Source: Escherichia coli (lineage in GTDB: Bacteria > Pseudomonadota > Gammaproteobacteria > Enterobacterales > Enterobacteriaceae). From it: DNA of 64,000 bases. Each line of letters opens with the position of its first letter. The first letter of the stretch is position 1. The notes under the pieces were generated by a model. That model was given only the letters and a program-made list of their open reading frames with translations. It was not told the origin of the DNA and did no database searches. The stretch lies in NCBI RefSeq assembly GCF_030013205.1, contig NZ_CP122648.1; one strand, given 5' to 3'. Below are positions 8,410 to 64,000 of this stretch, piece after piece. The translations under genes and the position numbers were made by a program.

Positions 8410-8411
8410 GG

Positions 8412-11092: not shown

Positions 11093-11110
11093 GCTTAATG
11101 CTCCGATAGG

Positions 11111-14293: not shown

Positions 14294-14294
14294 A

Positions 14295-16147: not shown

Positions 16148-16149
16148 GT

Positions 16150-16392
16150 TTATGCTCCGGTGGTGAACAGGTCTAACGCTTCCTTCGATTTACGCACCGC
16201 TTCGATAGTGCGGGTCGTGATATCCGAATTAGCGCCGCCTGACTGGAAGTGAATTTTGAATAGTTCAAGCTTCAGCTCGTCAGTGCCAATGAACTGAAAT
16301 GCTTCTTCTGCGGCTGCGTTCTGGTTCATGACCAGTTTGTAAATCTCTAACTGGAATTTCTGTTCTTCAGTCATGGGAATAATCTCTGCCAT
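16150..16392 (-). CDS. Hypothetical phage protein upstream of terS
   Basis: 80-aa ORF tightly packed against terS. Confidence 0.45.
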   Translation of the reverse strand: MAEIIPMTEEQKFQLEIYKLVMNQNAAAEEAFQFIGTDELKLELFKIHFQSGGANSDITTRTIEAVRKSKEALDLFTTGA

Positions 16393-16495
16393 TGTTGGCT
16401 CCGTTTATCCGTTAAAAGGGATATCAGTTAAGTTATCCCGTGTAGGGTATAAGCCATTATCAAAGCCACTCTGTAGGGAATGGCTTTTGTAATAA

Positions 16496-16876
16496 CTACT
16501 GTTCGCTTAGCTTCTGCTTCAGCAAGTAACCTTCGAGCATCCAGATTTTGTTTACAGCATTCTGCCGGGCAATCTTCCGACCAATTTCTGCATCAAAGTT
16601 TTCCGGGCTTGCACAGGCACTCTCTCCGGTAACGGTGAAGCCATTCTTCAGCACCAGTACGCAGAAAGTGAGCAACTTCAATGGTGATAAATCACGATCG
16701 CCTTCTTCTGGTTTTTCCCTGCCACAATATTCGTTGCTGGAAATGGCACCATTTCGTCCATCATAAGCAGTAAAGTAATGCTCGCTTTTAATCACGTCTT
16801 CGATGTGCTGCGGGGTGATTCGCGGTGCCGTTTTGCCTTTCTCAACGATTTCTTTTTCGATTTGCTGGTCGTTCAT
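16496..16876 (-). CDS. Phage protein of unknown function (possibly Gp49/Sf6 gp66-like)
   Basis: 126-aa ORF between the lysis remnant and terS; family assignment is recalled from position only and is unverified. Confidence 0.5.
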   Translation of the reverse strand: MNDQQIEKEIVEKGKTAPRITPQHIEDVIKSEHYFTAYDGRNGAISSNEYCGREKPEEGDRDLSPLKLLTFCVLVLKNGFTVTGESACASPENFDAEIGRKIARQNAVNKIWMLEGYLLKQKLSEQ

Positions 16877-17114
16877 AATTATGACCCTGTGGAGTGGTTG
16901 CTTGATTAGGATGTCTTTCCATCAGTCCGCCACCACAAAGAATCTTTTTTGCCATAAGGCTGGAGGTTCATCTTTCAGTGGCTGCCAGTGTTATTTCCCC
17001 ACTTACTGGCTTGGGTTGTTTCGCTGTACTGCCGTAACTGGTTACCCAGAATAAATTTTGGTTTCATTATCAAGCCCATCCGTAGATAGGCTTTGTAATG
17101 AACTGGCTCTTATC

Positions 17115-17267
17115 TCAACGCAGCCCCTTACCGCGCGCCAGATGCTCAATATCAAGCATCAGCAATGAGATGTTTAATCTGGATTCACTCCAGAAGTGAT
17201 CACCACCCTGTCTACAGAGCCAGATGTGAAGGATGATGAGTAGAATTATCGCTATCATCGAAGGCAT
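17115..17267 (-). CDS. Possible small ORF (50 aa) downstream of Rz remnant
   Basis: Hand translation MPSMIAIILLIILHIWLCRQGGDHFWSESRLNISLLMLDIEHLARGKGLR with AGGA RBS; start overlaps the Rz stop. Could be spurious. Confidence 0.25.
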   Translation of the reverse strand: MPSMIAIILLIILHIWLCRQGGDHFWSESRLNISLLMLDIEHLARGKGLR

Positions 17268-17480
17268 TGCGTCCTGATGTACTCCTGCAGGTAGTTAACC
17301 TGCGCGGTTATCCTGTCGATTCCACTTCGGAGACGGTAATAATTGAGTTCAGCATCTGCTGTAAGTCTTGGGCTTTCTCCATCGCCCATGCCGCTGGCTC
17401 TGGTCGTTGACTTTGCACAGGTGGCGGCGACTTGCAGGCGCTTACGACCAGCAGAAACATCAGCACGGAGACTTTCGATA
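17255..17480 (-). pseudogene. Rz: Rz (i-spanin) remnant, C-terminal part only
   Basis: ESLRADVSAGRKRLQVAATCAKSTTRASGMGDGESPRLTADAELNYYRLRSGIDRITAQVNYLQEYIRTQCLR aligns with the recalled lambda Rz C-terminus. The upstream part of the ORF has no Rz-like TM/N-terminal region and overlaps xis antisense. Confidence 0.65.
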
Positions 17481-17499
17481 TCGAAGCAGAGGACATCAA
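17308..17499 (-). CDS. Rz1: Rz1-like o-spanin lipoprotein, embedded in Rz frame +1
   Basis: Signal peptide with lipobox (LLVVSAC) followed by a proline-rich segment KSPPPVQSQRPEPAAW; the true start may be an internal Met. Confidence 0.65.
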   Translation of the reverse strand: MMSSASISKVSVLMFLLVVSACKSPPPVQSQRPEPAAWAMEKAQDLQQMLNSIITVSEVESTG

Positions 17500-17587
17500 C
17501 GACTGCTATAACCACTGGATGATATGGGCGCAGATAGCGCATGCAGACGTAACAAATATTCGAATTGAAGAACTGAAAGAACACCAA

Positions 17588-17608
17588 ACCGCCTGATGGC
17601 GGTTTTTT
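17588..17608 (+). terminator. Terminator-like hairpin upstream of xis
   Basis: ACCGCC-TGAT-GGCGGT followed by TTTTTT. Confidence 0.4.
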
Positions 17609-17635: not shown

Positions 17636-17854
17636 ATGTACTTGACACTTCAGGAGTGGAACGCACGCCAGCGGCGCCCAAGAAGCCTTGAAACAGTTCG
17701 TCGATGGGTACGCGAGTGCAGGATATTCCCTCCTCCGGTTAAGGATGGAAGAGAGTATCTGTTCCACGAATCAGCGGTAAAGGTTGACTTAAATCGACCA
17801 ATAACAGGTAGCCTTTTGAAGAGGATCGGAAATGGGAAGAAGGCGAAGTCATGA
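17636..17854 (+). CDS. xis: Excisionase, lambda Xis-type
   Basis: 72 aa, MYLTLQEWNARQRRPRSLETVRRWVRECRIFPPPVKDGREYLFHESAVKVDLNRPITGSLLKRIGNGKKAKS matches recalled lambda Xis; overlaps the int start. Confidence 0.93.
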   Translation: MYLTLQEWNARQRRPRSLETVRRWVRECRIFPPPVKDGREYLFHESAVKVDLNRPITGSLLKRIGNGKKAKS

Positions 17855-18902
17855 GCGCCGGGATTTACCCCCTAACCTTTATATAAGAAACAATGGATAT
17901 TACTGCTACAGGGACCCAAGGACGGGTAAAGAGTTTGGATTAGGCCGAGACAGGCGAATCGCAATCACTGAAGCTATACAGGCCAACATTGAGTTATTTT
18001 CAGGACACAAACACAAGCCTCTGACAGCGAGAATCAACAGTGATAATTCTGTTACGTTACATTCATGGCTTGATCGCTACGAAAAAATCCTCGCCAGCAG
18101 AGGAATCAAGCAGAAGACACTCATAAATTACATGAGCAAAATTAAAGCAATAAGGAGGGGGCTACCTGATGTTCCACTTGAAGACATCACCACAAAAGAA
18201 ATTGCGGCAATGCTCAATGGATACATAGACGAGGGCAAGGCGGCGTCAGCCAAGTTAATCAGATCAACACTGAGCGATGCATTCCGAGAGGCAATAGCTG
18301 AAGGCCATATAACAATAAACCCGGTCGCTGCCACTCGCGCTGCAAAATCAGAGGTAAGGAGATCAAGACTTACGGCTGACGAATACCTGAAAATTTATCA
18401 AGCAGCAGAATCATCACCATGTTGGCTCAGACTTGCAATGGAACTGGCTGTTGTTACCGGGCAGCGAGTTGGTGATTTATGCGAAATGAAGTGGTCTGAT
18501 ATCGTAGATGGATATCTTTATGTCGAGCAAAGCAAAACAGGTGTAAAAATTGCCATCCCTACAACATTGCATGTTGATGCTCTCGGGATATCAATGAAGG
18601 AAACACTTGATAAATGCAAAGAGATTCTTGGCGGAGAAACCATAATTGCATCTACTCGTCGTGAACCGCTTTCATCCGGCACAGTATCAAGGTATTTTAT
18701 GCGCGCACGAAAAGCATCAGGTCTTTCCTTCGAAGGGGATCCGCCCACCTTTCACGAGTTGCGCAGTTTGTCTGCAAGACTCTATGAGAAGCAGATAAGC
18801 GATAAGTTTGCTCAACATCTTCTCGGGCATAAGTCGGACACCATGGCATCACAGTATCGTGACGACAGAGGCAGGGAGTGGGACAAAATTGAAATCAAAT
18901 AA
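17832..18902 (+). CDS. int: Tyrosine integrase, lambda Int-type
   Basis: 356 aa, near-identical to recalled lambda Int from MGRRRSHERRDLPPNLYIRNNGYYCYRDPRTGKEFGLGRDRRIA to HLLGHKSDTMASQYRDDRGREWDKIEIK. Confidence 0.95.
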   Translation: MGRRRSHERRDLPPNLYIRNNGYYCYRDPRTGKEFGLGRDRRIAITEAIQANIELFSGHKHKPLTARINSDNSVTLHSWLDRYEKILASRGIKQKTLINYMSKIKAIRRGLPDVPLEDITTKEIAAMLNGYIDEGKAASAKLIRSTLSDAFREAIAEGHITINPVAATRAAKSEVRRSRLTADEYLKIYQAAESSPCWLRLAMELAVVTGQRVGDLCEMKWSDIVDGYLYVEQSKTGVKIAIPTTLHVDALGISMKETLDKCKEILGGETIIASTRREPLSSGTVSRYFMRARKASGLSFEGDPPTFHELRSLSARLYEKQISDKFAQHLLGHKSDTMASQYRDDRGREWDKIEIK

Positions 18903-31230: not shown

Positions 31231-31398
<168 letters not shown>

Positions 31399-32364: not shown

Positions 32365-33837
32365 ATGTCATCGTTGCAAATTTTGCAAGGCACGTTTCGT
32401 CTTAGCGACACAAAAACGCTGCAATTGCCTCAGCTAACGTTAAACGCGGGTGATAGTTGGGCGTTTGTCGGTTCGAATGGAAGCGGGAAATCGGCCCTGG
32501 CCCGTGCGCTGGCGGGGGAACTTCCGCTTTTGAAAGGTGAACGGCAAAGCCAGTTTTCCCACATCACTCGTCTCTCCTTCGAGCAATTGCAAAAGCTCGT
32601 CAGCGACGAATGGCAGCGGAATAACACCGATATGCTCGGCCCTGGCGAAGATGACACCGGGCGTACCACGGCTGAAATCATTCAGGATGAAGTAAAGGAT
32701 GCACCGCGTTGTATGCAACTGGCGCAGCAGTTCGGTATTACCGCCCTCCTCGACCGACGCTTTAAATACCTTTCCACTGGCGAGACGCGAAAAACCCTGC
32801 TGTGTCAGGCGCTGATGTCGGAGCCTGACTTGTTGATTCTTGATGAGCCGTTCGATGGCCTGGATGTTGCCTCACGTCAGCAGCTGGCTGAGCTACTCGC
32901 CTCGTTACATCAGTCCGGTATTACTCTGGTACTGGTGCTCAATCGCTTCGATGAGATCCCGGAATTTGTCCAGTTTGCTGGCGTGCTGGCGGATTGTACG
33001 TTAGCGGAAACGGGCGCTAAAGAGGAACTGCTCCAACAAGCACTCGTTGCGCAACTGGCGCATAGCGAACAGCTTGAAGGTGTACAACTGCCGGAGCCGG
33101 ATGAACCTTCAGCACGTCACGCCTTACCCGCCAACGAACCGCGCATTGTGCTGAACAACGGCGTGGTTTCTTATAATGATCGCCCCATTCTTAATAACCT
33201 TAGCTGGCAGGTGAATCCAGGTGAACACTGGCAAATTGTCGGGCCAAATGGCGCGGGAAAATCGACGTTATTAAGCCTGATTACTGGCGATCATCCGCAA
33301 GGTTACAGCAACGATTTGACGCTTTTCGGACGACGTCGCGGCAGCGGCGAAACCATCTGGGATATCAAAAAGCATATCGGTTACGTCAGCAGTAGTTTGC
33401 ATCTGGATTACCGGGTCAGTACTACTGTGCGTAATGTGATTCTTTCTGGCTATTTTGATTCGATTGGCATTTATCAGGCCGTTTCGGATCGCCAGCAAAA
33501 ACTGGTGCAGCAGTGGCTGGATATTCTCGGCATTGATAAACGCACGGCTGACGCTCCGTTCCATAGTCTTTCCTGGGGGCAACAACGCCTGGCGCTGATC
33601 GTCCGCGCGCTGGTGAAACATCCGACGTTGCTTATTCTCGATGAACCACTACAGGGGCTTGATCCGCTCAATCGCCAGCTTATCCGCCGGTTTGTTGATG
33701 TGCTGATTAGCGAAGGTGAAACGCAATTGTTGTTTGTTTCGCACCACGCTGAAGATGCGCCTGCCTGTATTACCCATCGTCTTGAGTTCGTGCCAGACGG
33801 CGGACTCTATCGCTATGTGCTGACAAAAATAAATTGA
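32365..33837 (+). CDS. modF: ABC-family ATPase ModF (two ATPase domains)
   Basis: Two Walker A motifs (GSNGSGKS, GPNGAGKS); start at MSSLQILQG, 4 codons inside the track ORF. Confidence 0.9.
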   Translation: MSSLQILQGTFRLSDTKTLQLPQLTLNAGDSWAFVGSNGSGKSALARALAGELPLLKGERQSQFSHITRLSFEQLQKLVSDEWQRNNTDMLGPGEDDTGRTTAEIIQDEVKDAPRCMQLAQQFGITALLDRRFKYLSTGETRKTLLCQALMSEPDLLILDEPFDGLDVASRQQLAELLASLHQSGITLVLVLNRFDEIPEFVQFAGVLADCTLAETGAKEELLQQALVAQLAHSEQLEGVQLPEPDEPSARHALPANEPRIVLNNGVVSYNDRPILNNLSWQVNPGEHWQIVGPNGAGKSTLLSLITGDHPQGYSNDLTLFGRRRGSGETIWDIKKHIGYVSSSLHLDYRVSTTVRNVILSGYFDSIGIYQAVSDRQQKLVQQWLDILGIDKRTADAPFHSLSWGQQRLALIVRALVKHPTLLILDEPLQGLDPLNRQLIRRFVDVLISEGETQLLFVSHHAEDAPACITHRLEFVPDGGLYRYVLTKIN

Positions 33838-44356: not shown

Positions 44357-44432
44357 TGGTGGGTCGTGCAGGATTCGAACCTGCGACCAATTGATTAAAA
44401 GTCAACTGCTCTACCAACTGAGCTAACGACCC
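44357..44432 (-). tRNA. tRNA-Lys(UUU)
   Basis: Reverse complement equals the recalled E. coli tRNA-Lys (GGGTCGTTAGCTCAGTTGGTAGAGCAGTTGACTTTTAATCAATTGGTCGCAGGTTCGAATCCTGCACGACCCACCA). Confidence 0.95.
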
Positions 44433-44465
44433 CTTGCGGGATTATGCTGCTTTAATCATTCAGGA

Positions 44466-44541
44466 TGGTGGGTCGTGCAGGATTCGAACCTGCGACCAAT
44501 TGATTAAAAGTCAACTGCTCTACCAACTGAGCTAACGACCC
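44466..44541 (-). tRNA. tRNA-Lys(UUU)
   Basis: Identical copy of the 76-nt tRNA-Lys sequence. Confidence 0.93.
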
Positions 44542-44590
44542 ATACGGGTGTTACCTGAAAGATTTCTACTCGAAACCAATCTTTAAGATT

Positions 44591-44660
44591 GGTGGGTCGT
44601 GCAGGATGACTCGCTTCGCTCGCCCTACGGGCCGTTGCTGGCGCAACGTTATCCTTCACG
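44591..44660 (-). repeat. Spacer unit: truncated tRNA-Lys 3' end (17 nt) fused to a ~55-bp conserved repeat
   Basis: TGGTGGGTCGTGCAGGA followed by TGACTCGCTTCGCTCGCCCTACGGGCCGTTGCTGGCGCAACGTTATCCTTCACG; second copy at 44877-44950. Confidence 0.5.
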
Positions 44661-44687
44661 CTTAACATCTGAGTTTGATGTTAAAAC

Positions 44688-44763
44688 TGGTGGGTCGTGC
44701 AGGATTCGAACCTGCGACCAATTGATTAAAAGTCAACTGCTCTACCAACTGAGCTAACGACCC
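44688..44763 (-). tRNA. tRNA-Lys(UUU)
   Basis: Identical copy of the 76-nt tRNA-Lys sequence. Confidence 0.93.
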
Positions 44764-44765
44764 GG

Positions 44766-44841
44766 TGGTGGGTGATGACGGGATCGAACCGCCGACCCCC
44801 TCCTTGTAAGGGAGGTGCTCTCCCAGCTGAGCTAATCACCC
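44766..44841 (-). tRNA. tRNA-Val(UAC)
   Basis: Reverse complement equals the recalled E. coli tRNA-Val1 (GGGTGATTAGCTCAGCTGGGAGAGCACCTCCCTTACAAGGAGGGGGTCGGCGGTTCGATCCCGTCATCACCCACCA); 2 nt from the adjacent tRNA-Lys. Confidence 0.93.
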
Positions 44842-44876
44842 GATACTACGCTGGATACTACAACTAACTAGGTTAG

Positions 44877-44950
44877 TGGTGGGTCGTGCAGGATGACTCG
44901 ACTTCGTCTCGCCCTTCGGGCCGTTGCTGACGCAACGTTATCCTTCACGT
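44877..44950 (-). repeat. Spacer unit: truncated tRNA-Lys 3' end fused to the conserved repeat (second copy)
   Basis: TGGTGGGTCGTGCAGGA followed by TGACTCGACTTCGTCTCGCCCTTCGGGCCGTTGCTGACGCAACGTTATCCTTCACG. Confidence 0.5.
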
Positions 44951-44976
44951 TTTACTACCGCTTCCACCTTAGCGAT

Positions 44977-45052
44977 TGGTGGGTCGTGCAGGATTCGAAC
45001 CTGCGACCAATTGATTAAAAGTCAACTGCTCTACCAACTGAGCTAACGACCC
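44977..45052 (-). tRNA. tRNA-Lys(UUU), first gene of the operon
   Basis: Identical 76-nt tRNA-Lys sequence. Confidence 0.93.
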
Positions 45053-45216: not shown

Positions 45217-46008
45217 TTACATCGCGTTCAGACGTTTTTGCGCCTGTTTAGCGCCATCAGTACCAGGGTATTTACTGATAACCTGCTGGTATACGGCTTT
45301 CGCTTTTGCGGTGTCACCTTTGTCCTGCATGATGACGCCGACTTTAAACATCGCATCTGCAGCCTTCGGTGACTTCGGATAGTTTTTCACTACCGAAGCA
45401 AAATAATACGCAGCGTCATCTTTTTTACCCTTGTTGTAGTTTAACTGACCCAGCCAATAATTGGCGTTTGGCAGGTAAGTTGAATCAGGGTAATTTTTGA
45501 TGAAATTCTGAAATGCCACCATTGCGTCATCCTGGCGGGATTTATCCTGCACCAGCGCAATAGCTGCATTGTAATCCGTGTTTGCATCACCGCTTTTCAC
45601 CGGCGCGCCAGCATTCGCAGTACCAGCATCAGCTGTCGGCGTCGTTGATGCCGCCGCACCGCTTTGATCGCCGCTGGTTGATTGCGCCGCTGCACCACCG
45701 CTGCTGAGGCTATCGATCTGCAACAGGATCTGCTTTTGCCGCTCCATGACCTGATTCAGTTGATACTGATTTTCCTGAATCTGACCACGCAGGGAATCAA
45801 TATCGGATTGATTATCAGAGAGTTGTTGCTGGAGTTGGGTTAAAAGCTGGCTGTGAGCATTTGAAATACGCTCAAGTTGAGTGACGCGGTCTTCGACCGA
45901 GCCTGAGCCGACACTACTGATTGGTGCCTGAGCAAAAGCGGCCCAGGGGGCCGCTATACCAACCAGTAACGACAGACTCAATAGTTGATGTCTGAAGTTA
46001 CTGCTCAT
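45217..46008 (-). CDS. cpoB: Cell division coordinator CpoB (YbgF), TPR protein
   Basis: 263 aa with signal peptide, coiled coil and TPR-like C-terminus; last gene of the tol-pal cluster. Confidence 0.93.
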   Translation of the reverse strand: MSSNFRHQLLSLSLLVGIAAPWAAFAQAPISSVGSGSVEDRVTQLERISNAHSQLLTQLQQQLSDNQSDIDSLRGQIQENQYQLNQVMERQKQILLQIDSLSSGGAAAQSTSGDQSGAAASTTPTADAGTANAGAPVKSGDANTDYNAAIALVQDKSRQDDAMVAFQNFIKNYPDSTYLPNANYWLGQLNYNKGKKDDAAYYFASVVKNYPKSPKAADAMFKVGVIMQDKGDTAKAKAVYQQVISKYPGTDGAKQAQKRLNAM

Positions 46009-46017
46009 GCAATTCTC

Positions 46018-46563
<546 letters not shown>

Positions 46564-49760: not shown

Positions 49761-50854
<1,094 letters not shown>

Positions 50855-50952
50855 TTTACATCCCGGTAATGCAACAAAAGTTAGAGCTTTTAAACGCTGC
50901 TACTATACGCGCGCGATTGAGGTTTGGGAATGAGGGCAAGTTAAGGGAGCGT

Positions 50953-50988
50953 AAAAATTTATGGGCCTGAAGCGGCCCATAAATTTTT
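50953..50988 (-). terminator. Intrinsic terminator after ybgE
   Basis: ATTTATGGGCC-TGAAGC-GGCCCATAAAT flanked by T/A tracts (bidirectional shape). Confidence 0.6.
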
Positions 50989-51003
50989 AAAGAGAATTCT
51001 GAT

Positions 51004-51297
51004 TTAAAAGAAGAAGAAAATCAGCCCGACAATGAGAACAATATCGGCAAGCAAAGGGCAAAAAATCCCTTGCCAGAGAACCTTCTGCGGACGAAAGCCC
51101 ACGCCGTGAATAACACCAGCACAGACGGCCCACATCAGCAATAAACCATGCCAGATTTCCAGTTCACTGGTCTTCGCGGCGAAACGTGACGGGTCCCAAA
51201 ACATACATCCTGCTAACAGAAGCGCCATCACGAAGGAAAGCGCCCGCAGGGGGCGCTTGTCCATTACCGCATACAAGGTTGCGATAATCTTACTCAT
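51004..51297 (-). CDS. ybgE: Small membrane protein YbgE
   Basis: 97 aa, downstream of cydX. Confidence 0.9.
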   Translation of the reverse strand: MSKIIATLYAVMDKRPLRALSFVMALLLAGCMFWDPSRFAAKTSELEIWHGLLLMWAVCAGVIHGVGFRPQKVLWQGIFCPLLADIVLIVGLIFFFF

Positions 51298-51410
51298 CAG
51301 ATGTCTTCTTGACCGGCTTTGCCTGATTCGACGTGCTCAAGCGCCAGCGCGGTGATTACCCCAAACGAACAGGCAAGAAGCGTTCCCAGAATCCATGCGA
51401 AATACCACAT
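51297..51410 (-). CDS. cydX: Cytochrome bd-I accessory subunit CydX, 37 aa (not in ORF track)
   Basis: Hand translation MWYFAWILGTLLACSFGVITALALEHVESGKAGQEDI; 14 bp after the cydB stop, overlapping the ybgE start by 1 nt. Confidence 0.85.
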   Translation of the reverse strand: MWYFAWILGTLLACSFGVITALALEHVESGKAGQEDI

Positions 51411-51424
51411 TTTTAGCTCCTTAC

Positions 51425-52564
51425 TTAGTACAGAGAGTGGGTGTTACGTTCAATATCTTCTTTGGTGATACGACCGAACATTTTCCAGTAACACCAGGCG
51501 GTGTAGAGCAGAATGATCGGTACCAGAACCACCGCAACCCAGGTCATGACGTTAAGTGTCAGCTGGCTGGAAGTTGCATCCCACATTGTCAGACTTGCGT
51601 TCATCATGGTGCTGGACGGCATCACAAACGGGAACATTGCGATACCGGCAGTCAGGATGATGCAGGCCAGCGTCAGGGAGGAGAACACAAACGCCCACGC
51701 GGCTTTATCCATACGTGCAGTCAGGATGGTCAGCAGCGGCAGAACCACACCCAGTGCCGGAATAGCCCACAGAATTGGCGTGTTGTTGAAGTTTACCAGC
51801 CATGCGCCAGCTTCACGAACCACTTCTTTATTCAGCGGGTTAGAGGCTGCGTAATGGTCCATTGTCGATTTCACGACATAACCATCGATACCGTACATCA
51901 CCCATACGCCAGCCAGTGCGAAGCAGACCAGTGTCACCAGTGCCGCCACCTGAGCCGTTGCACGGGTACGCAGGTGCAGTTCGCCCACGGTACGCATTTG
52001 CAGGTAAGTCGCGCCCTGAGTAATGATCATTCCTACGCTCACCACGCCAGCCAGCAGGCCGAACGGGTTAAGCAGCTGGAAGAAGTTACCGGTGTAGTAC
52101 AGACGCAGATATTCATCAACGTTGAACGGTACGCCCTGCAACAGGTTACCGAACGCCACACCAATCACCAGCGGCGGAACGAAGCTACCAATGAAGATGC
52201 CCCAGTCCCACATGTTACGCCAGCGGGTTTCTTCAATCTTGGAGCGGTAGTCAAAACCGACCGGACGGAAGAACAAAGATGCCAGCACGAGGATCATCGC
52301 CACATAGAAGCCGGAGAACGCAGCGGCATAGACCATCGGCCAGGCAGCAAAGAGTGCGCCGCCCGCGGTGATCAGCCAAACCTGGTTACCGTCCCAGTGT
52401 GGTGCAATGGAGTTAATCATAATTCGACGCTCGGTGTCGTTACGACCGAGGAAACGGGTGAGCATGCCCACCCCCATGTCGAAACCGTCAGTGACTGCAA
52501 AACCAATCAGCAGAACGCCAACCAGCAGCCACCAGATAAAACGCAATACTTCATAATCGATCAT
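51425..52564 (-). CDS. cydB: Cytochrome bd-I ubiquinol oxidase subunit II
   Basis: 379-aa polytopic membrane protein. Confidence 0.95.
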   Translation of the reverse strand: MIDYEVLRFIWWLLVGVLLIGFAVTDGFDMGVGMLTRFLGRNDTERRIMINSIAPHWDGNQVWLITAGGALFAAWPMVYAAAFSGFYVAMILVLASLFFRPVGFDYRSKIEETRWRNMWDWGIFIGSFVPPLVIGVAFGNLLQGVPFNVDEYLRLYYTGNFFQLLNPFGLLAGVVSVGMIITQGATYLQMRTVGELHLRTRATAQVAALVTLVCFALAGVWVMYGIDGYVVKSTMDHYAASNPLNKEVVREAGAWLVNFNNTPILWAIPALGVVLPLLTILTARMDKAAWAFVFSSLTLACIILTAGIAMFPFVMPSSTMMNASLTMWDATSSQLTLNVMTWVAVVLVPIILLYTAWCYWKMFGRITKEDIERNTHSLY

Positions 52565-52579
52565 TTGACGACTCCTGTC

Positions 52580-54148
52580 TTAGCGTGCCGGCTGAGTAGT
52601 CGTGGAAGACTGCTCAAAGTGATAGCGACCGGTTTTCAGGCTGCTTGGGCCGAGGCGTGCATACTTGAACATTAAGAACAATTCTGCCACCAGGAACAGG
52701 GTATACAGGCCGCAAATCAGCACCATTGAGAAGATGAGATCGCCTGCGGTCAGTGACGAGTTCGCCACAGCTGTCGGCAGCACTTCACCGATAGCCCACG
52801 GTTGGCGGCCATATTCAGCCACGAACCAGCCCGCTTCTACAGCAATCCACGGCAGCGGAATACCGTACAGCGCGGCGCGCAGCAGCCATTTTTTCTCGCC
52901 AATGCGGTTGCGGATGACACTCCAGAAAGAGAGCGCGATGATTGCCAGCAGCAGGAAGCCACACGCCACCATGATACGGAACGCGAAGTACAGCGGCGCT
53001 ACACGCGGAATGGAGTCTTTGGTTGCCTGTTGAATCTGCGCTTCAGTCGCATCCGCCACGTTTGGCGTATAGCGTTTCAGCAGCAGACCGTAACCGAGGT
53101 CTTTCTTCATGCTATTGAACTGGTCACGAACCGCCTGGTCGGTAGAACCAGAACGCAGTTGTTCGAGCAGAGAGTACGCCTTCATCCCGTTACGAATGCG
53201 TTCTTCATGCTGCACCATCAGCTCTTTCAGGCCGATAACCGGGGTATCCACGGAACGCGTTGCAATGATGCCCAGTGCGTAAGGGATCTGGATTGCAAAT
53301 TTGTTCGTCTCCTCTTCCTGATCAGGAATGCCGAACAGAGTAAAGGCAGCAGGTGCAGGTTGCGTTTCCCACTCGGCTTCAATAGCAGCCAGTTTGGTTT
53401 TCTGCACGTCGCCCATTTCGTAACCAGATTCATCACCCAGAACAATAACAGACAGAACGGCAGCCATACCGAAGCTGGCAGCGATAGCAAAGGAGCGTTT
53501 AGCGAAGGCGAAGTCACGACCTTTCAGCATATACCATGCGCTGATACCGAGGATGAACATCGCGCCAGTCACATAACCAGAGGCTACAGTGTGAACGAAT
53601 TTCACCTGAGCAACCGGGTTAAGCACCAGCTCGGAGAAGCTCACCATCTCCATACGCATAGTTTCAAAGTTGAAATCGGATGCGATTGGGTTTTGCATCC
53701 AGCCGTTCGCAACCAGAATCCACAGTGCGGACAGGTTTGAACCGAGCGCCACCAGCCAGGTGACACACATATGCTGAACTTTACCCAGACGATCCCAACC
53801 GAAGAAGAACAGACCTACAAAGGTGGATTCGAGGAAGAAGGCCATCAGACCTTCGATTGCCAGCGGCGCACCGAAGATATCCCCTACATAGTGGGAATAG
53901 TAAGACCAGTTAGTCCCGAACTGGAACTCCATGGTCAGACCGGTAGCCACACCCAGAGCGAAGTTGATACCAAACAACTTGCCCCAGAACTTGGTCATAT
54001 CTTTATAAATCTGTTTGCCGGAAAGGACGTAGACCGTTTCCATAATGGCCAGCAGGAACGCCATACCGAGCGTCAGTGGCACAAAAAGGAAGTGGTACAT
54101 CGCGGTCAAGGCAAACTGTAAGCGCGACAGTTCGACTATATCTAACAT
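52580..54148 (-). CDS. cydA: Cytochrome bd-I ubiquinol oxidase subunit I
   Basis: Start at [12 protein letters not shown] (522 aa), one codon inside the track ORF. Confidence 0.95.
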
Positions 54149-54953
54149 CATGACTCCTTGCTCATCGCATGAAGACTCCGAGAGTGAACCCCGTTAGAAA
54201 GGGTCACACGCATGCCCCAATACAAAATTATTTGCTCGCCTCTATCGTTGCCATTTCATCAAAAGAGGAAAAGACAATGATAAAAAAGTTACAAATATGT
54301 TAATGAATAAACCAAATTGATCCCGTAATTATATTACGCCGCAAAATCCTTACAATAAACAGGTTTTTATTGAGCAAATTTGCATTTTTCGACAGTGATC
54401 AATTTATAGCGAAATTGTCACGATCTCACCAATTTGATCTACGACAATTTATCGTGTTTTGCAGATTTTTTTCAAGAATTAAAAATTGATTTATATCAAA
54501 ACCAACCAAATATGTTAATTATGTATAAACCATAGATCATTGGTGATTTTATTGTTAATTTATTGTGAAATATTTATGCAACACAATTATTACAATGAAA
54601 AGGTATAGATAAAAAACCAGTGTTTTATTTAACAGAACCGCCTTATCCACTTTTTATAATACCAATTGATTAGATTAGCCAATTTGTTGCTATTTTACAT
54701 AACATATTTTTATCAAAGTTAATTGATTGTTGCGTTTATGAGCACCGGCCGTAAGCCCGTTATGTTATTGTTTCATTAGTAATAATCACTTAAATGTATC
54801 GATGAAACAGGTATGACTTAGCGGGAGTGATTGTTTCTGAGTGAACAGAGACCACTTTCGCCTGATAAATGAAAAATGAGCGATTTTTGCAAGTTAGTTT
54901 TTCTATAGCCGAGTACGCTCAGCGCCTCGCTTGATTACAATGAGGTTGCTGCT
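54149..54953. promoter_or_regulatory. Long AT-rich region upstream of cydA (cydAB control region) merging into accessory DNA
   Basis: About 800 bp of AT-rich non-coding DNA with TTGAT-containing motifs; cydAB is known to have a complex FNR/ArcA-regulated promoter. Individual sites not resolved. Confidence 0.4.
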
Positions 54954-55898
54954 ATGAGTCCTGATAATATCAGTTCTGCTGTCAATCGCTTCTCAGGTTG
55001 GCCATCTAATGATCCTCTAAAAACAGATAAAGAATCAATGACATCACCCATGACTGTGCAGGTAATAAAGATGATTGCCGCCATCCTTGACCCACATCGG
55101 ATAGTCGTTGGAATCGATACACTTTATACAACGCAGCGCGAAACATTTACCTCAGAGAGTCAACAGCTCATTGAATCAGCATTGCAAACACTTCATGTGA
55201 TGAATTTAAATAACCTGGAAACAAATCTCGATGAGGAAGGTCACTATCTGGCTTTTGGATATAACGTTGACACTCCTGACAGAATAACCGTTTCTGCTTA
55301 TAATGAAAAAAAGCCTGGCTGCTATGGCCAATGTCTTTTAATACAGGATGACGAAACAGACTTATTTAACCTGATAAAAGTTAAAATTTTTGAAGCCAGA
55401 CATAATTATGTCGCTCAATTGATGAGCGATCCGGAATTTATGTTCAAATTTAGTTATAGCGCTCAACAAAATAGATTAGAACCTCATCTTCTGGTTCCCA
55501 CTTATTTCCCTCTAAAAACAAACGAACCGGTTACGCAAGAGGATGTACTGTTACTTTATCGTTTCTTTAAAATGGATGGTGATTTTAATATATTAACATC
55601 AGATGAATACATGAGCATCATGACACCTCTGATGAAGTGTGAGCGCAGCATCCACGACCACAACAGGTATGTGACGGGCAAAGATACCCTTCTTCTGGAC
55701 TATCCTCCTTCTGGTAACCAGATATATTTCCATATTTTTCCTGACGAATCAGCAACACTAGTCCTTTATTTTTCAAACAATGACATTGAATGTTTCGTCT
55801 TTGAAAGAGATATTCCGAGCCAGTATCGCTTTTTCAAAATGTTTACCAATCTGGCACTGGTTATTGATCAGTTAACCGATGCCAATCAAATACTTTAA
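54954..55898 (+). CDS. Hypothetical protein (AT-rich accessory gene)
   Basis: 314-aa ORF with GAGG RBS; AT-rich codon usage unlike the flanking core genes; no motif recognised. Confidence 0.55.
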   Translation: MSPDNISSAVNRFSGWPSNDPLKTDKESMTSPMTVQVIKMIAAILDPHRIVVGIDTLYTTQRETFTSESQQLIESALQTLHVMNLNNLETNLDEEGHYLAFGYNVDTPDRITVSAYNEKKPGCYGQCLLIQDDETDLFNLIKVKIFEARHNYVAQLMSDPEFMFKFSYSAQQNRLEPHLLVPTYFPLKTNEPVTQEDVLLLYRFFKMDGDFNILTSDEYMSIMTPLMKCERSIHDHNRYVTGKDTLLLDYPPSGNQIYFHIFPDESATLVLYFSNNDIECFVFERDIPSQYRFFKMFTNLALVIDQLTDANQIL

Positions 55899-56401: not shown

Positions 56402-56948
56402 ATCCCTCCTGTCGCGAAAAATGGCCTGCGTTATTGCCAGACGTAATAAAACTTTTGATTAACGTTTCTCGTACTGGTAGCACCTTCATGTACTTTTCTT
56501 TTTTACGAAAAATCAAAAGAGCTAACAAAGGTCATAATTCGCATGAATCATTAATTATTTGTTATTTTCAACATTATTTTTACATTAAGCAGAGATGAAT
56601 TGCTGTGAAATTCGACTTAACTTTTATGAAATGCATTTACTCATGGCTAAAGCCACGTCACAAAAATGCAAATTAGAAGTTGATCACAATTATCTCAATA
56701 CATCAAATCAAGTTAATTTTAAAAATTTAACATTCATGACATCAGTTGACATAACACACTGAATTAAAATGAGAATTTGAAAACACACTTTAAACAATCA
56801 TTTCCCGAAAGACATTTTGAAAATAGATCAATTGCAACATTACGGTCAGATAAAGACACTCCTGTGATATTAAACCTGTGCCGTTATGAACGGCCATAAA
56901 TACGACGTGTGTAACTTATTTTACTCTCTGTCTTACAAAGGATTACCC

Positions 56949-57398
56949 ATGAAGAAAGCAACACTTGTGATTGGCGTTATTGGCGCGGACTGCCATGCAG
57001 TAGGCAATAAAGTTCTGGACCGCGTTTTTAGCAACCATGGCTTCAGAGTCATTAATCTGGGCGTAATGGTCAGCCAGGACGAATATATTGATGCGGCCAT
57101 TGAAACTGGCGCTGACGCGATTGTCGTCTCCTCTATCTATGGGCATGGCGATATCGATTGTCTGGGCATGCGCGAACGCTGCATTGAGCGTGGGCTGGGT
57201 AACATCCTGCTCTATGTGGGCGGTAACCTGGTGGTCGGAAAACATGACTTCGCTGACGTGGAAACCAAGTTCAAAGAGATGGGATTTGATCGCGTCTTTT
57301 CCCCAAGTCATGACTTAGAAGATGTTTGTCAGCTGATGGCCCACGATATCAACCAACGTCATGACGTTGATACTCGCATTCTTGAAGAGGCAATCTGA
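56949..57398 (+). CDS. Glutamate mutase S (sigma) subunit, B12-binding
   Basis: Starts [23 protein letters not shown] (cobalamin-binding DxHxxG-type motif); about 149 aa; track ORF begins 21 codons upstream. Confidence 0.85.
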
Positions 57399-58786
57399 TG
57401 CAAATCGTCTCTGTCGATATTGGTTCGACGTGGACCAAAGCAGCCCTCTTCACCCGGGAGGGGGACGCGTTAACGTTGGTTAACCACGTTCTGACCCCAA
57501 CCACCACCCATCATCTGGCGAAGGGGTTTTTCTCCAGCCTGGACCAGGTGTTAAACGTAGATGATGCCCTCCCCCTGTTAAACAGTGGTGAGGTTGCATT
57601 GAAGTATTCCTCCTCTGCCAAAGGTGGGCTGGCGGTTGCCGCAATGGGATTGGTGCCTTCTATCACCCTGGAAACCGCGAAAGTAACCGCTCACTCTGCG
57701 GGTGCTAAAATTGCGCAATATTACGCCTACAAGCTGAACCGCCGTGATATCCAGGCACTGGAAGAAACGCAGCCCGATATTCTCTTGTTCACCGGCGGCA
57801 CCGATGGCGGAGAAGAAAGCTACGGACTGAATAACGCCCGTGTGTTGGCAGAATCCAAACTCGACTGCGCCATTATTTATGCCGGAAACCGGGATATTCA
57901 GGACGAGGTGCAGGAGGTCCTCGGGCATAAAGACCTGACCATCGTCGACAACGTTCTGCCCGATCTTGACCATCCGAACCCTTTAGCCGCACGCCAGGCT
58001 ATTTGCGACATATTCCTTAAACGCATCGTTAAAGGGAAAGGGCTGGATGTCATTGTTGATAAAACAGGCGAAGAACCAATGCCGACACCATGGACGGTCT
58101 TTGAACTGGTTAAGGCAATCAGTAACGTCGATCACAGCTGGAAAGAGTTCATGCTGATCGACATGGGCGGCGCAACCACCGATGTTTATTCCGCCTGTGC
58201 CAACACGCTCTCGCCCGACACCGTTCTACACGGCGTACCGGAACCCTTCGTGAAACGGACGGTGGAAGGCGATCTGGGAATGCGCGTCTCGGCAATGGTG
58301 GTTGGTGAAAGTGCGAAAGAGTTAGTCAATGTGAATTTTGCTCAGCAACCCGCACAGCTGGACGCTTTTTATCATTACCTCCGCCATCTAGTCGCTCATC
58401 CCGACTACTTACCCGCGAATGCAGAAGAAAAATATTTCGATACCGTCCTGGCCGGAGTGTGTGTGGGTTATGCCACCGAAAGACATGCGGGCACCAAAAA
58501 AGAGGTCTGCACCTGCGTCGGCAATGTCGATTTACAGATGGGACGTGATCTGACAACCGTGCGTAAAGTCGTGGGTTCCGGCGGATGGCTCTCGCGTGCC
58601 AGTCAGTTCGATATGCATCACTGGTTGAAATACCGCGAGTTAAACGACGACGGTAAACGCATTCTCTTACCGACCGAATTTGAATATTACCGCGATTCCC
58701 GGGGGCTATTACCACTGCTGGCAAACGTCGCCAGAGTCGATCCGCTGGCCGCCGCGCGCACCAGTATTCAATGCTTAACCCTATAA
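57398..58786 (+). CDS. Glutamate mutase accessory protein (GlmL/MutL-like)
   Basis: 462-aa ORF between the S and E subunit genes, the position of glmL in clostridial glutamate mutase operons. Confidence 0.75.
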   Translation: MQIVSVDIGSTWTKAALFTREGDALTLVNHVLTPTTTHHLAKGFFSSLDQVLNVDDALPLLNSGEVALKYSSSAKGGLAVAAMGLVPSITLETAKVTAHSAGAKIAQYYAYKLNRRDIQALEETQPDILLFTGGTDGGEESYGLNNARVLAESKLDCAIIYAGNRDIQDEVQEVLGHKDLTIVDNVLPDLDHPNPLAARQAICDIFLKRIVKGKGLDVIVDKTGEEPMPTPWTVFELVKAISNVDHSWKEFMLIDMGGATTDVYSACANTLSPDTVLHGVPEPFVKRTVEGDLGMRVSAMVVGESAKELVNVNFAQQPAQLDAFYHYLRHLVAHPDYLPANAEEKYFDTVLAGVCVGYATERHAGTKKEVCTCVGNVDLQMGRDLTTVRKVVGSGGWLSRASQFDMHHWLKYRELNDDGKRILLPTEFEYYRDSRGLLPLLANVARVDPLAAARTSIQCLTL

Positions 58787-58804
58787 CAATTAAGGCTGCA
58801 ATCA

Positions 58805-60250
58805 ATGGAACTTCGAAATAAGAAATTAACCCATGACGAATTCATGACCGAGCGGCAACAGGTACTGAAAACCTGGGAAACCGGCAAGGATGTTGAAAAC
58901 TTTGAAGATGGCGTTAAATACCAACAAACCATCCCTGAGCATAAACGCTTCTCTCTTGCGCTGCTGAAAGCAGACAAGGAAGGTAAAACCCTTAGCCAAC
59001 CGCGCGCAGGTGTGGCGCTGATGGACGAACACATCGAACTACTGAAAACACTACAAGAAGAGTGCGATCTGCTGCCGAGCACTATCGATGCATATACCCG
59101 TCTGAATCGGTACGAAGAAGCGGCTGTAGGGATTAAAAAATCCATCGAAGCCGGAACCTCTAAACTGAACGGTTTGCCGGTAGTTAACCATGGCGTCGCA
59201 GCTTGCCGTCGCCTCACCGAAGCCCTGCAAAAACCGCTACAGATCCGCCACGGCACGCCAGATGCGCGTCTGCTGGCTGAAATCTCGATGTCCAGCGGCT
59301 TTACCAGTTACGAAGGCGGCGGCATTTCCTACAACATTCCGTATGCCAAACGCGTAACGCTGGAAAAATCGATCCGCGACTGGCAGTACTGCGACCGTTT
59401 AATGGGGATGTATGAAGAACACGGGATCCGCATCAACCGCGAACCGTTTGGCCCACTAACGGGTACGCTGATCCCGCCGTTTATCTCGCACTCTATCGCG
59501 ATCATCGAAGGCTTGCTGGCGCTGGAACAGGGTGTGAAATCTATCACCGTTGGTTATGGACAGGTCGGCAGCCTGACGCAGGATGTTGCGGCGATCCAGT
59601 CTCTGCGTGAACTTGCACACGAATATTTTCAGAGCTATGGCTATACCGACTATGAATTAAGTACCGTGTTTCACCAGTGGATGGGCGGCTTTCCGGAAGA
59701 CGAATCGAAAGCGTTCGCTATTATCTCCTGGGGCGCAGCCGTCGCGGGGATGTCTGGTGCCACCAAAGTCATCACCAAAAGTCCGCACGAAGCCTGGGGT
59801 ATCCCGACTGCCGCTGCCAACATTCAGGGGCTGAAAGCCTCCCGCCAGATGCTCAACATGGTCAACGAGCAGAAATTCCCGCCGTGCCCTGCGGTTGAAC
59901 TGGAAATTGAACTGATTAAGAGCGAGGTTCGCGCAGTACTGAATAAAGTGTTCGAACTGGGTAATGGTGATATTGCGCGCGGTACGGTGCTGGCATTTGA
60001 AGCGGGCGTACTGGATGTGCCGTTTGCACCAGCCGCGTGTAACGCGGGCAAAATTCTTCCGGTCCGTGACAACACCGGCGCGATACGCGTACTGGAAGCC
60101 GGAGCCGTTCCATTGCCAAAAGATATTCTCGACCTCCACCACGATTACGTTGCTGAACGCGCACGCTTTGAAGGACGCCAACCGACATTCCAGATGGTTG
60201 TAGATGACATCAATGCTGTATCCCACAGTAAATTAATAGGAAGACCATAA
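58805..60250 (+). CDS. Glutamate mutase E (epsilon) subunit
   Basis: 481-aa ORF following the glmL-like gene; operon context. Confidence 0.8.
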   Translation: MELRNKKLTHDEFMTERQQVLKTWETGKDVENFEDGVKYQQTIPEHKRFSLALLKADKEGKTLSQPRAGVALMDEHIELLKTLQEECDLLPSTIDAYTRLNRYEEAAVGIKKSIEAGTSKLNGLPVVNHGVAACRRLTEALQKPLQIRHGTPDARLLAEISMSSGFTSYEGGGISYNIPYAKRVTLEKSIRDWQYCDRLMGMYEEHGIRINREPFGPLTGTLIPPFISHSIAIIEGLLALEQGVKSITVGYGQVGSLTQDVAAIQSLRELAHEYFQSYGYTDYELSTVFHQWMGGFPEDESKAFAIISWGAAVAGMSGATKVITKSPHEAWGIPTAAANIQGLKASRQMLNMVNEQKFPPCPAVELEIELIKSEVRAVLNKVFELGNGDIARGTVLAFEAGVLDVPFAPAACNAGKILPVRDNTGAIRVLEAGAVPLPKDILDLHHDYVAERARFEGRQPTFQMVVDDINAVSHSKLIGRP

Positions 60251-61491
60251 TGAAAATAAAACAGGCCCTGTTCACCGCTGGCTACTCCTCATTCTATTTC
60301 GATGACCAGCAGGCGATAAAAAACGGAGCGGGTCATGACGGCTTTTTTTATACCGGGGAGCCAGTAACACAGGGGTTTAACGCCGTACGTCAGGCCGGGG
60401 AGTGCGTATCGGTACAGTTGATTCTGGAAAACGGCGCGGTCGCCGTAGGTGACTGTGCTGCCGTACAGTATTCCGGGGCAGGTGGTCGCGATCCACTGTT
60501 CCTCGCGGAGCACTTTATTCCGTTCCTCAACGACCATATCAAGCCATTACTGGTAGGCCGCGATGTGGATACTTTCCTGCCGAATGCCCGTTTCTTCGAC
60601 AAATTGCGTATTGACGGCAACTTGCTGCATACCGCCGTGCGCTACGGATTATCACAGGCGCTGCTTGATGCTACCGCGCTGGCAACCGGCCGTCTGAAAA
60701 CTGAAGTGGTCTGTGATGAATGGCAGTTGCCACGCGTGGCGGAATCCATTCCATTATTTGGTCAGAGCGGCGACGATCGATATATCGCCGTCGATAAGAT
60801 GATCCTTAAGGGCATCGACGTGCTGCCCCATGCACTGATTAATAACGTCGAAGAGAAACTGGGCTTTAAAGGTGAAAAACTGCGCGAATATGTCCGCTGG
60901 CTGTCGGATCGTATTCTGAGCAAGCGCACCAGCGCACGCTACCACCCTACCCTGCACATCGATGTATACGGCACTATCGGTCTGATCTTCGATATGGATC
61001 CGCTTCGCTGTGCGCAATACATCGCCAGCCTGGAAAAAGAAGCGCAAGGCCTGCCGCTCTACATTGAAGGTCCGGTCGATGCCGGTAACAAGCCCGATCA
61101 AATTCGCCTGCTGACCGCGATTACCAAAGAGCTGACGCGCCTCGGTTCCGGCGTGAAACTAGTGGCCGATGAATGGTGTAACACCTACCAGGATATTGTT
61201 GATTTCACCGATGCCGCCAGTTGCCACATGGTGCAAATCAAAACCCCGGATCTGGGCAGTATTCACAACATCGTCAATGCAGTTCTTTATTGCAACAGCC
61301 ACAGCATGGAAGCGTACCAGGGCGGCACCTGCAATGAAACTGATGTCAGTGCCCGCACCTGTGTCCACGTCGCCCTTGCCGCTCGCCCCATGCGTATGCT
61401 GGTAAAACCAGGGATGGGCTTTGACGAAGGCCTCGATATCGTCTTCAACGAAATGAATCGTACTATCGCGCTGTTGCAGGCTAAGGATTAA
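60250..61491 (+). CDS. 3-methylaspartate ammonia-lyase
   Basis: 413-aa enolase-superfamily-size ORF immediately after the mutase genes, overlapping the glmE-like stop. Confidence 0.8.
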   Translation: MKIKQALFTAGYSSFYFDDQQAIKNGAGHDGFFYTGEPVTQGFNAVRQAGECVSVQLILENGAVAVGDCAAVQYSGAGGRDPLFLAEHFIPFLNDHIKPLLVGRDVDTFLPNARFFDKLRIDGNLLHTAVRYGLSQALLDATALATGRLKTEVVCDEWQLPRVAESIPLFGQSGDDRYIAVDKMILKGIDVLPHALINNVEEKLGFKGEKLREYVRWLSDRILSKRTSARYHPTLHIDVYGTIGLIFDMDPLRCAQYIASLEKEAQGLPLYIEGPVDAGNKPDQIRLLTAITKELTRLGSGVKLVADEWCNTYQDIVDFTDAASCHMVQIKTPDLGSIHNIVNAVLYCNSHSMEAYQGGTCNETDVSARTCVHVALAARPMRMLVKPGMGFDEGLDIVFNEMNRTIALLQAKD

Positions 61492-61494
61492 CAA

Positions 61495-62865
61495 ATGGCT
61501 CGTTCTTTTAAAGTCTTATCGCCTACGGCAATCCTCGGGTATGGATTCCCGGAGGAGAGCTTCCGCAAAGCGATGGCAGAATCGCCCGATCTGATCGCCG
61601 TTGATGCTGGCTCTTCCGATCCTGGCCCCCACTACCTCGGGGCGGGCAAACCGTTTACCGATCGCGCAGGGGTCAAGCGCGATCTGCGCTATATGATCAC
61701 CGCAGGCGTGCAAAATAATATACCGGTGGTGATCGGAACGGCCGGCGGTTCTGGTGCCGCTCCACACCTGGAGTGGTGCCGAGAAATAATTCATGAGATT
61801 GCCCGGGAAGAGCACCTCTCGTTCTCGATGGCGCTGATCCCGGCAGACGTTGACAAAGCCATCGTCCACCAGGCGCTGGATAACGGCAAAATCACGGCGC
61901 TGGATTTTGTCCCGCCGTTAACCCACGACGCGATTGACGAAAGTACGTATATCGTCGCGCAAATGGGCATCGAACCCTTCCAGCAGGCGCTGAAAGAAGG
62001 CGCGCAAGTGGTGCTGGGCGGGCGCGCTTACGACCCGGCCTGCTTTGCTGCGCTACCGATCATGCAAGGCTTTGATGAAGGTCTGGCGCTGCATTGTGGG
62101 AAAATCCTTGAATGCGCGGCAATCGCCGCAACGCCCGGCTCAGGCTCTGACTGTGCGATGGGCATCATTGATGACAACGGCTTTACGCTGAAGACATTTA
62201 ATCCGAAGCGTAAATTTACCGAAACGTCAGCAGCTGCACACACACTGTATGAGAAATCCGATCCCTACTTCCTGCCAGGACCTGGCGGCGTGTTGAACCT
62301 GAAAAGCTGCACATTTAAAGCGGTCAATGACGGCGAAGTGTACGTCAGCGGTTCTAAGCATGAAGAAACGCCGTATTCCCTGAAACTGGAAGGTGCGCGA
62401 CGGGTGGGCTTCCGCTGTCTGACCATCGCCGGAACGCGCGACCCGATCATGATCGCCGGGATCGATAAAATCATCGATGAAGTCAAAACCAGCGTTTCGC
62501 GTAACCTGTCGCTCGACGATGACAGCATTCACATCAATTTCCACCTGTACGGCAAAAACGGGGTGATGGGCGACCATGAACCGATGCAAACTGCCGGGCA
62601 TGAGCTGGGGATTGTCCTTGATGTAGTTGCACCGACCCAGGAAATTGCCAACAGCGTTTGCTCGCTGGTGCGCTCTACCATGCTGCACTACGGCTATGAA
62701 AACCGCATCGCTACCGCAGGTAATCTGGCGTTCCCGTTCTCCCCTTCTGATATTCAGGGCGGGCCGGTATACGAATTTTCCATATATCACCTGATTGAAG
62801 CCAACGACGCTCTGCGTTTTGATTTCCATATTGAACAGGTGACGCCAGAAGGAGTTCAGGCATGA
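61495..62865 (+). CDS. DUF1446 / AtuA-like protein, function unknown
   Basis: 456-aa ORF 3 bp after the ammonia-lyase gene; family assignment recalled, not verified. Confidence 0.6.
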   Translation: MARSFKVLSPTAILGYGFPEESFRKAMAESPDLIAVDAGSSDPGPHYLGAGKPFTDRAGVKRDLRYMITAGVQNNIPVVIGTAGGSGAAPHLEWCREIIHEIAREEHLSFSMALIPADVDKAIVHQALDNGKITALDFVPPLTHDAIDESTYIVAQMGIEPFQQALKEGAQVVLGGRAYDPACFAALPIMQGFDEGLALHCGKILECAAIAATPGSGSDCAMGIIDDNGFTLKTFNPKRKFTETSAAAHTLYEKSDPYFLPGPGGVLNLKSCTFKAVNDGEVYVSGSKHEETPYSLKLEGARRVGFRCLTIAGTRDPIMIAGIDKIIDEVKTSVSRNLSLDDDSIHINFHLYGKNGVMGDHEPMQTAGHELGIVLDVVAPTQEIANSVCSLVRSTMLHYGYENRIATAGNLAFPFSPSDIQGGPVYEFSIYHLIEANDALRFDFHIEQVTPEGVQA

Positions 62866-63061
62866 AACAGTCAATTGTCTCACTGGCGCAAGTCATTCGT
62901 TCGAAAAATGCCGGACCTTACGAACTGGTTTTAGATATTTTATTTAAAACCAAAGAAAACTATGAGCGAGTCAAATCATCAGGGCAATTAACCCCAGAAC
63001 TGATTGGGTGATGCTGCCAACTTACTGATTTAGTGTATGATGGTGTTTTTGAGGTGCTCCA

Positions 63062-63337
63062 GTGGCTTCTGTTTCTATCAGCTGTCCCTCCTGTTCAGCT
63101 ACTGACGGGGTGGTGCGTAACGGCAAAAGCACCGCCGGACATCAGCGCTATCTCTGCTCTCACTGCCGTAAAACATGGCAACTACAGTTCACTTACGCCG
63201 CCTCTCAGCCCGGTACGCACCAGAAAATCATTGATATGGCCATGAATGGCGTCGGATGTCGCGCCAGTGCACGCATTATTGGCGTTGGCCTCAACACGAT
63301 TTTCCGCCACTTAAAAAACTCAGGCCGCAGTCGGTAA
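63062..63337 (+). CDS. insA: IS1 InsA
   Basis: 91 aa [43 protein letters not shown] (zinc finger). Confidence 0.93.
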
Positions 63338-63759
63338 CCTCGCGCATACAACCGGGCAGTGATGTGATTGTCTGCGCTGAAATGGACGAACAGTGGGGCT
63401 ACGTCGGTGCTAAATCACGTCAGCGCTGGCTGTTTTACGCGTATGACAGGATGCGGAGGACGGTTGTGGCGCACGTCTTCGGTGAACGCACTCTGGCCAC
63501 ACTGGAGCGTCTTCTGAGCCTGCTGTCGGCCTTTGAGGTCGTGGTATGGATGACGGATGGCTGGCCGCTGTATGAATCACGCCTGAAGGGAAAGCTGCAC
63601 GTTATCAGCAAGCGTTATACTCAGCGCATTGAGCGGCATAACCTGAATCTGAGACAACATCTGGCAAGGCTGGGACGGAAGTCACTGTCGTTCTCAAAAT
63701 CGGTGGAGCTGCATGACAAGGTCATCGGGCATTATCTGAACATAAAACACTATCAGTAA
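63256..63759 (+). CDS. insB: IS1 InsB frame (expressed as InsAB' by -1 frameshift)
   Basis: 167-aa frame overlapping the insA 3' end; A-run slippery site before the insA stop. Confidence 0.9.
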
Positions 63760-64000
63760 GTTGGAGTCATTACCACTGATTGCGCGCTTATATCATGTTG
63801 AACCTGACTTTATTCACCGTATTGTCTGGTTTGATCCTTCTAACGCAGTAAAAATCGTCATGCCACGAGATATTATCTCCGGGAATGTAGGTGACAATGA
63901 TGTCTATGGTGCACAGCAACATGCACCTTTATTAAATATGAGTTTCGATTTGTAAAAATCCGAATACTTTTAGCCAACTGACATCCCGTCACTTATTGCA

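Follow-up and report, generated by a model that had tools for sequence, protein, structure and literature searches.

Genomic organization of the cydX locus

The window, i.e., the whole 64-kb stretch of Escherichia coli DNA analysed here, carries the genes cydA, cydB, cydX and ybgE on its minus strand, and their coordinates are collected in Table 1. The cydX reading frame is composed of 37 sense codons and TGA, with the ATG at 51410-51408 and the stop codon at 51299-51297; the reverse complement of 51297-51410 runs ATGTGGTATTTC...GACATCTGA, and its translation is MWYFAWILGTLLACSFGVITALALEHVESGKAGQEDI (37 aa). The original prediction, which was made from the letters alone, had placed a 37-aa ORF 14 bp after cydB, and this proved exact, while the strand, left unstated there, is minus. 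The reading frame lies directly 3' of cydB and on the same strand as the bd-I-type (long Q-loop) cydAB pair. The cydB ORF ends in ...TCTCTGTAC and a TAA stop codon at 51427-51425, and the spacer that separates it from cydX is 14 nt long (GTAAGGAGCTAAAA, 51424-51411). This spacer includes TAAGGAG, whose 7 bases match the Shine-Dalgarno consensus and which is predicted from its sequence to act as the ribosome-binding site for cydX. At the other end of the gene, the one-base overlap with the ybgE start that had also been claimed is present, base 51297 being common to the TGA of cydX and the ATG of ybgE. As for ybgE itself, a canonical Shine-Dalgarno sequence is absent 5' of its ATG in GCCGGTCAAGAAGACATCTG.

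Table 1. Features of the cyd locus and a further small-protein gene in the window (window coordinates).
Feature	Coordinates	Strand	Description and evidence
cydA	52580..54148	-	bd-I subunit I, haem-bearing partner of CydX; PF01654, 572 bits; RefSeq start 54148, 522 aa
cydB	51425..52564	-	bd-I subunit II, 379 aa; directly upstream of cydX; PF02322, 369.5 bits; RefSeq
Shine-Dalgarno TAAGGAG of cydX	51417..51423	-	inside the 14-nt spacer, 6 nt (CTAAAA) 5' of the ATG
cydX CDS	51297..51410	-	subunit X, single-helix, of cytochrome bd-I oxidase; ORF, PF08173, TIGR02106, 6rko_X, RefSeq WP_000270282.1
TGATG junction	51295..51299	-	cydX stop 51299-51297 and ybgE start 51297-51295 (cTGATGa)
ybgE	51004..51297	-	97 aa; closes the cydABX-ybgE operon; PF09600, 116.1 bits; RefSeq
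acrZ	31231..31380	-	AcrB-associated efflux-pump accessory protein, 49 aa; PF10766, 102.9 bits

The neighbouring genes were assigned with the NCBIfam models. cydB scores 867.9 against the bd-I CydB equivalog NF011579 (cut-off 718), and cydA reaches 1178.4 bits against the bd-I equivalog NF011677 (cut-off 968). The bd-II models, on the other hand, stay below their cut-offs for cydA as well as for cydB, the latter scoring 513.7 against the bd-II subunit II model NF011602 (cut-off 681). ybgE exceeds the cut-off of NF007881 (185.2 bits vs 116), and it is followed downstream by ybgC-tolQRA-tolB-pal-cpoB. Between pal and cpoB, a full-length match to the Rfam family RF02782, the CpoB/ybgF intercistronic RNA thermometer, is located at 45979-46117 on the minus strand (142 bits vs a gathering score of 51). 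The cydA ORF opens with two ATG codons (MML..., 54148-54151, minus strand); of these, the second (54148) is the start in RefSeq and in the NF011677 profile alike, and it is also the one preceded by AAGGAG. A promoter/terminator scan of 50300-55500 gave counts of 10 against 7.0 +/- 2.7 and 10 against 5.6 +/- 2.3 in shuffled sequence, which is not clearly above expectation.

Identity of the encoded peptide

The 37-aa peptide matches PF08173 (YbgT_YccB) in Pfam with 53.9 bits, where the gathering score is 26.2 (E = 1.8e-14, profile positions 1-26/27), and the NCBIfam equivalog TIGR02106, "cytochrome bd-I oxidase subunit CydX", with 70.7 bits against a cut-off of 31.6 (E = 9.1e-20, profile positions 1-29/30). 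A PDB search revealed that 37/37 residues are identical to chain X of 6RKO, 6RX4 and seven later entries (E = 8.9e-22); all nine matching entries are cryo-EM structures of E. coli bd-I, in which the chain is named "Cytochrome bd-I ubiquinol oxidase subunit X". Judging by this identity to the structure chains, the polypeptide would be part of the purified oxidase complex. Residues 1-25 of the peptide have a GRAVY of 1.59 and residues 26-37 one of -1.02, with a mean hydropathy of 2.05 in the best 19-residue window; a hydrophobic stretch of residues 1-25 and a polar one of residues 26-37 thus fit a single transmembrane helix followed by a short soluble tail.

Taken together, the ORF at 51297-51410 is almost certainly cydX, once named ybgT, which stands third in the cydABX-ybgE operon and encodes a subunit of the bd-I oxidase; no observation speaks against this reading. 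The original prediction had named the product as CydX, the accessory subunit of cytochrome bd, and this identity is borne out by scores above the cut-offs of PF08173 and TIGR02106, by the 37/37 match to 6rko_X and by the RefSeq annotation as cydX; a translation that failed to match CydX had been put forward as the outcome that would speak against it, and the translation does match. The gene is an already known, annotated and structurally solved one, so its recognition here is correct and adds nothing new.

Conservation of cydX across E. coli

Of 5,426 complete E. coli genomes, 5,425 contain the 1-kb stretch spanning cydX, and the same number contain the 437-bp stretch spanning it; over the 1-kb stretch, at least 10 genomes are 100% identical. 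cydX is annotated in every record among the matches listed or fetched, and seven fetched records, K-12 NCM3722 included, carry it at matching coordinates as WP_000270282.1. In the RefSeq record of strain C4, cydX at 4398-4511 corresponds to 51297-51410 on the minus strand of the window and is separated from cydB by a 14-nt gap, while ybgE occupies 4105-4398 and shares one base with it. RefSeq shows the cydB-cydX-ybgE arrangement described in the original prediction, its 14-nt gap and 1-base overlap unchanged, for all the E. coli genomes inspected, among them K-12.

Sequence variation was sampled in six genomes besides C4, which were taken down the identity ranking of the matches and include K-12 NCM3722. 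Across these six genomes, the cydX DNA shows one difference, a synonymous change of codon 25 from GAG to GAA, at which K-12 NCM3722 differs, and the Shine-Dalgarno spacer is invariant. With 1 synonymous substitution (26 sites) and 0 non-synonymous ones (85 sites), the variation in cydX agrees with a coding gene and is too low for purifying-selection statistics. In the same six genomes, 13 distinct codons of ybgE are changed, 12 of them synonymously and 1 non-synonymously. As well, ybgE of E. coli NIPH17_0036 (301-557 of the record) is annotated as a frameshifted pseudogene, and cydX and cydB are intact in this strain, a hint that loss of ybgE need not affect cydX.

Function of CydX according to previous studies

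According to the part of a review that cites Hoeser et al. [quoted passage not shown] Alanine scanning at the native cydX locus revealed no single essential residue, while the start mutant M1P was deletion-like; the N-terminal residues W2, Y3, W6 and G9 acted cooperatively, with double and triple mutants losing function, and the last six residues were dispensable (PMC6005532). Published K-12 data contradict wild-type bd-I activity and beta-mercaptoethanol resistance in a cydX start-codon mutant. A cryo-EM study from 2026 demonstrated that CydX forms the interface of the bd-I dimer via a leucine zipper together with a Met1-Trp2 motif, and that, where CydA and CydX meet, its Thr10 touches a structural ubiquinone (PMC13189123). 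All residues named in the cited mutagenesis and cryo-EM work are present in the peptide studied here, the functionally implicated M1, W2, Y3, W6, G9 and T10 being found in its start, MWYFAWILGT.... Ribosome profiling had been suggested as a check on the gene, and published data do label E. coli cydX as translated: it was so labelled in a manual curation of Ribo-seq data and called by DeepRibo, REPARATION_blast and SPECtre (PMC8921622).

Based on these reports and on the organization of the locus, cydX would share a minus-strand transcript with cydA and cydB, and its translation would start from a strong ribosome-binding site of its own in the 14-nt spacer after the cydB stop. The first ~25 of the 37 residues are predicted to form one transmembrane helix, which, if the literature on the identical protein is followed, would pack on transmembrane helices of CydA near haem b558. 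According to the same literature, CydX would be needed for the bd-I quinol oxidase, its haem b595/d active site included, to assemble stably and be active, and in dimeric bd-I it would provide the protomer-protomer interface and part of a ubiquinone pocket. From what is known of the identical K-12 protein, CydX is presumably translated in vivo and required for bd-I activity, and cydX is probably expressed in this particular strain.

Possible translational coupling to ybgE and alternative readings

Because the cydX stop and the ybgE start overlap in TGATG and no canonical Shine-Dalgarno sequence precedes ybgE, it was considered that ybgE might be translated only by ribosomes terminating on cydX (termination-reinitiation), a mechanism that we regard as possible rather than probable. 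Such coupling may exist in addition to the subunit role of CydX. If true, the amount of YbgE would be tied to CydX synthesis, which would be a property of an already known operon and nothing new in the window. The overlap and the lack of a canonical Shine-Dalgarno sequence before ybgE would also suit a more radical view, in which cydX is intact and serves mainly to pass ribosomes on to ybgE by translational coupling, with a peptide that is a dispensable by-product. This is highly improbable, since the peptide is a structural subunit, the natural strain with a frameshifted ybgE keeps an intact cydX, and published triple mutants are not phenotypically silent (PMC6005532).

The size of the reading frame was also evaluated against chance. 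A six-frame search of the 64-kb window yielded 510 ORFs with a length of 37 aa or more, of which 277 fall in the range of 37-60 aa, and several meaningless ORFs in other frames overlap the cydX interval; by size alone, an ORF like cydX is not above chance. These numbers would agree with an untranslated chance ORF, the interval being only an intercistronic region between cydB and ybgE. The cydX ORF nevertheless stands above chance because of its family HMM match (E = 9e-20), its 37/37 identity to a solved chain, its strong Shine-Dalgarno sequence and its position; AAGGAG occurs at Shine-Dalgarno distance before ATG ORFs of at least 30 aa only 6 times in the whole window, cydA and cydX being among them. 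An untranslated chance ORF is exceedingly improbable in view of E-values of 1.8e-14 and 9.1e-20 with scores above curated cut-offs, the optimal spacing of the Shine-Dalgarno sequence, the Ribo-seq translation (PMC8921622) and the M1P phenotype (PMC6005532), and it is already refuted by the identical polypeptide in nine PDB entries of the purified enzyme.

Finally, the probability that the peptide is AppX/CbdX (formerly YccB), the small subunit of the bd-II paralogue, is close to nil: it has the N-terminal MWY..W..G.LL.CS motif in common with AppX and matches the CbdX model and the PDB AppX chains weakly, but it reaches only 21.7 bits (residues 1-17 aligned) against the cut-off of 57 in the CbdX/AppX equivalog NF011333, compared with 70.7 in TIGR02106, and E = 0.015-0.19 over residues 1-24 against the AppX chains, compared with 8.9e-22 over the full length against CydX, and this score comparison, together with an operon context in which the adjoining large subunits score above the equivalog cut-offs for bd-I and below those for bd-II, refutes it.

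With the reading as cydX retained, its absence from the ORF track that accompanied the sequence, as claimed in the original prediction, would presumably result from a length below the threshold. Such an omission is plausible because the ORF tool has a default minimum of 60 aa, and the cydX ORF shows up only when this minimum is lowered. Among small membrane proteins, CydX is a textbook case, and cytochrome bd serves as a target for antibiotics. ORF tracks with a length threshold drop real small genes that are essential for function, such as cydX and acrZ in the same window. Small genes like cydX can be recovered by reading the raw sequence, and the value of doing so is one of quality control only; the cydX locus described here gives no new information on CydX or cytochrome bd.

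Comparison with known small subunits

The closest known counterpart is CydX of E. coli K-12 (YbgT; WP_000270282.1; chain X of 6RKO and 6RX4), which has the same 37 aa, operon position, 14-nt Shine-Dalgarno spacer and 1-base ybgE overlap. No difference exists at the protein level, and the DNA of NCM3722 differs by one synonymous base (codon 25, GAG vs GAA). AppX/CbdX (YccB; chain C of 7OSE and chain X of 7OY2) is a further member of YbgT_YccB in Pfam, carries the N-terminal MWY-W-G-LL-CS motif and takes an equivalent position against the subunit I homologue (PMC8951039). Its tail, however, differs from that of CydX, its match to the peptide is weak (E = 0.015, residues 1-23), and it is encoded after appB instead of cydB.

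Other single-helix accessory subunits on CydA, like CydX, are CydS of the Geobacillus thermodenitrificans bd oxidase and CydH/CydY (YnhF) of E. coli bd-I (PMC8951039). [quoted passage not shown] The PDB search with the peptide gave no match to CydS or CydH. AcrZ and similar E. coli proteins resemble CydX in having fewer than 50 aa and one transmembrane helix, in binding a large membrane complex and in being easily dropped by ORF length thresholds; unlike CydX, AcrZ belongs to the unrelated family PF10766 and has AcrB as its partner.

Other features of the window

The gene acrZ is a second known small-protein gene in the window that is liable to loss under an ORF length threshold. Other small ORFs with an AAGGAG were considered as candidates for additional missed genes. 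The one at 32430-32564 on the minus strand lies antisense within modF and looks like chance, and the one at 62862-63011 on the plus strand is a truncated DUF4387 gene. A prophage ORF of 48 aa at 2180-2326 on the minus strand, in the left part of the window that differs from strain C4, possesses a strong AAGGAG Shine-Dalgarno sequence and a match to the Arc-like DNA-binding domain (PF03869, 25.1 bits).

The left 17.6 kb of the window (1-17598) is unaligned to strain C4, in which a lambdoid prophage occupies the same integrase-ybhC junction, and an integrase is encoded at 17832-18902 on the plus strand. The missing alignment of 1-17598 to C4 therefore indicates a different prophage or island at the integrase-ybhC site.

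A lysT-type tRNA cluster at 44357-45052 on the minus strand contains 5 tRNAs (Lys, Val, Lys, Lys, Lys in transcription order), compared with 7 in strain C4. Collinearity with C4 breaks within the tRNA repeat region, and two RtT-family Rfam matches overlap the cluster. The difference in tRNA number from C4 probably reflects copy-number variation, or assembly collapse, between the repeated units.

A 314-aa ORF that is divergent from cydA, and upstream of it, is located at 54954-55898 on the plus strand; it is annotated as "hypothetical protein" in RefSeq, and a Pfam search with it gave no match. It is followed at 56948-62865, also on the plus strand, by a cluster encoding methylaspartate mutase (glmS/glmL/glmE), methylaspartate ammonia-lyase, AtuA and DUF4387. 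The position of the 314-aa ORF and the methylaspartate mutase cluster is one that we take to be occupied by mngR-mngAB in K-12.

An IS1 element at ~63003-63790, whose transposase ORF spans 63256-63759 (PF03400, 249 bits), interrupts the DUF4387 gene 3' of the AtuA-family gene. The DUF4387 remnant at 62862-63011 on the plus strand, which has an AAGGAG site, keeps 49 N-terminal aa in frame, compared with 105 aa in strain C4. Over 62600-64000, the window is 100% identical only to the pig ETEC strain ETEC4079.
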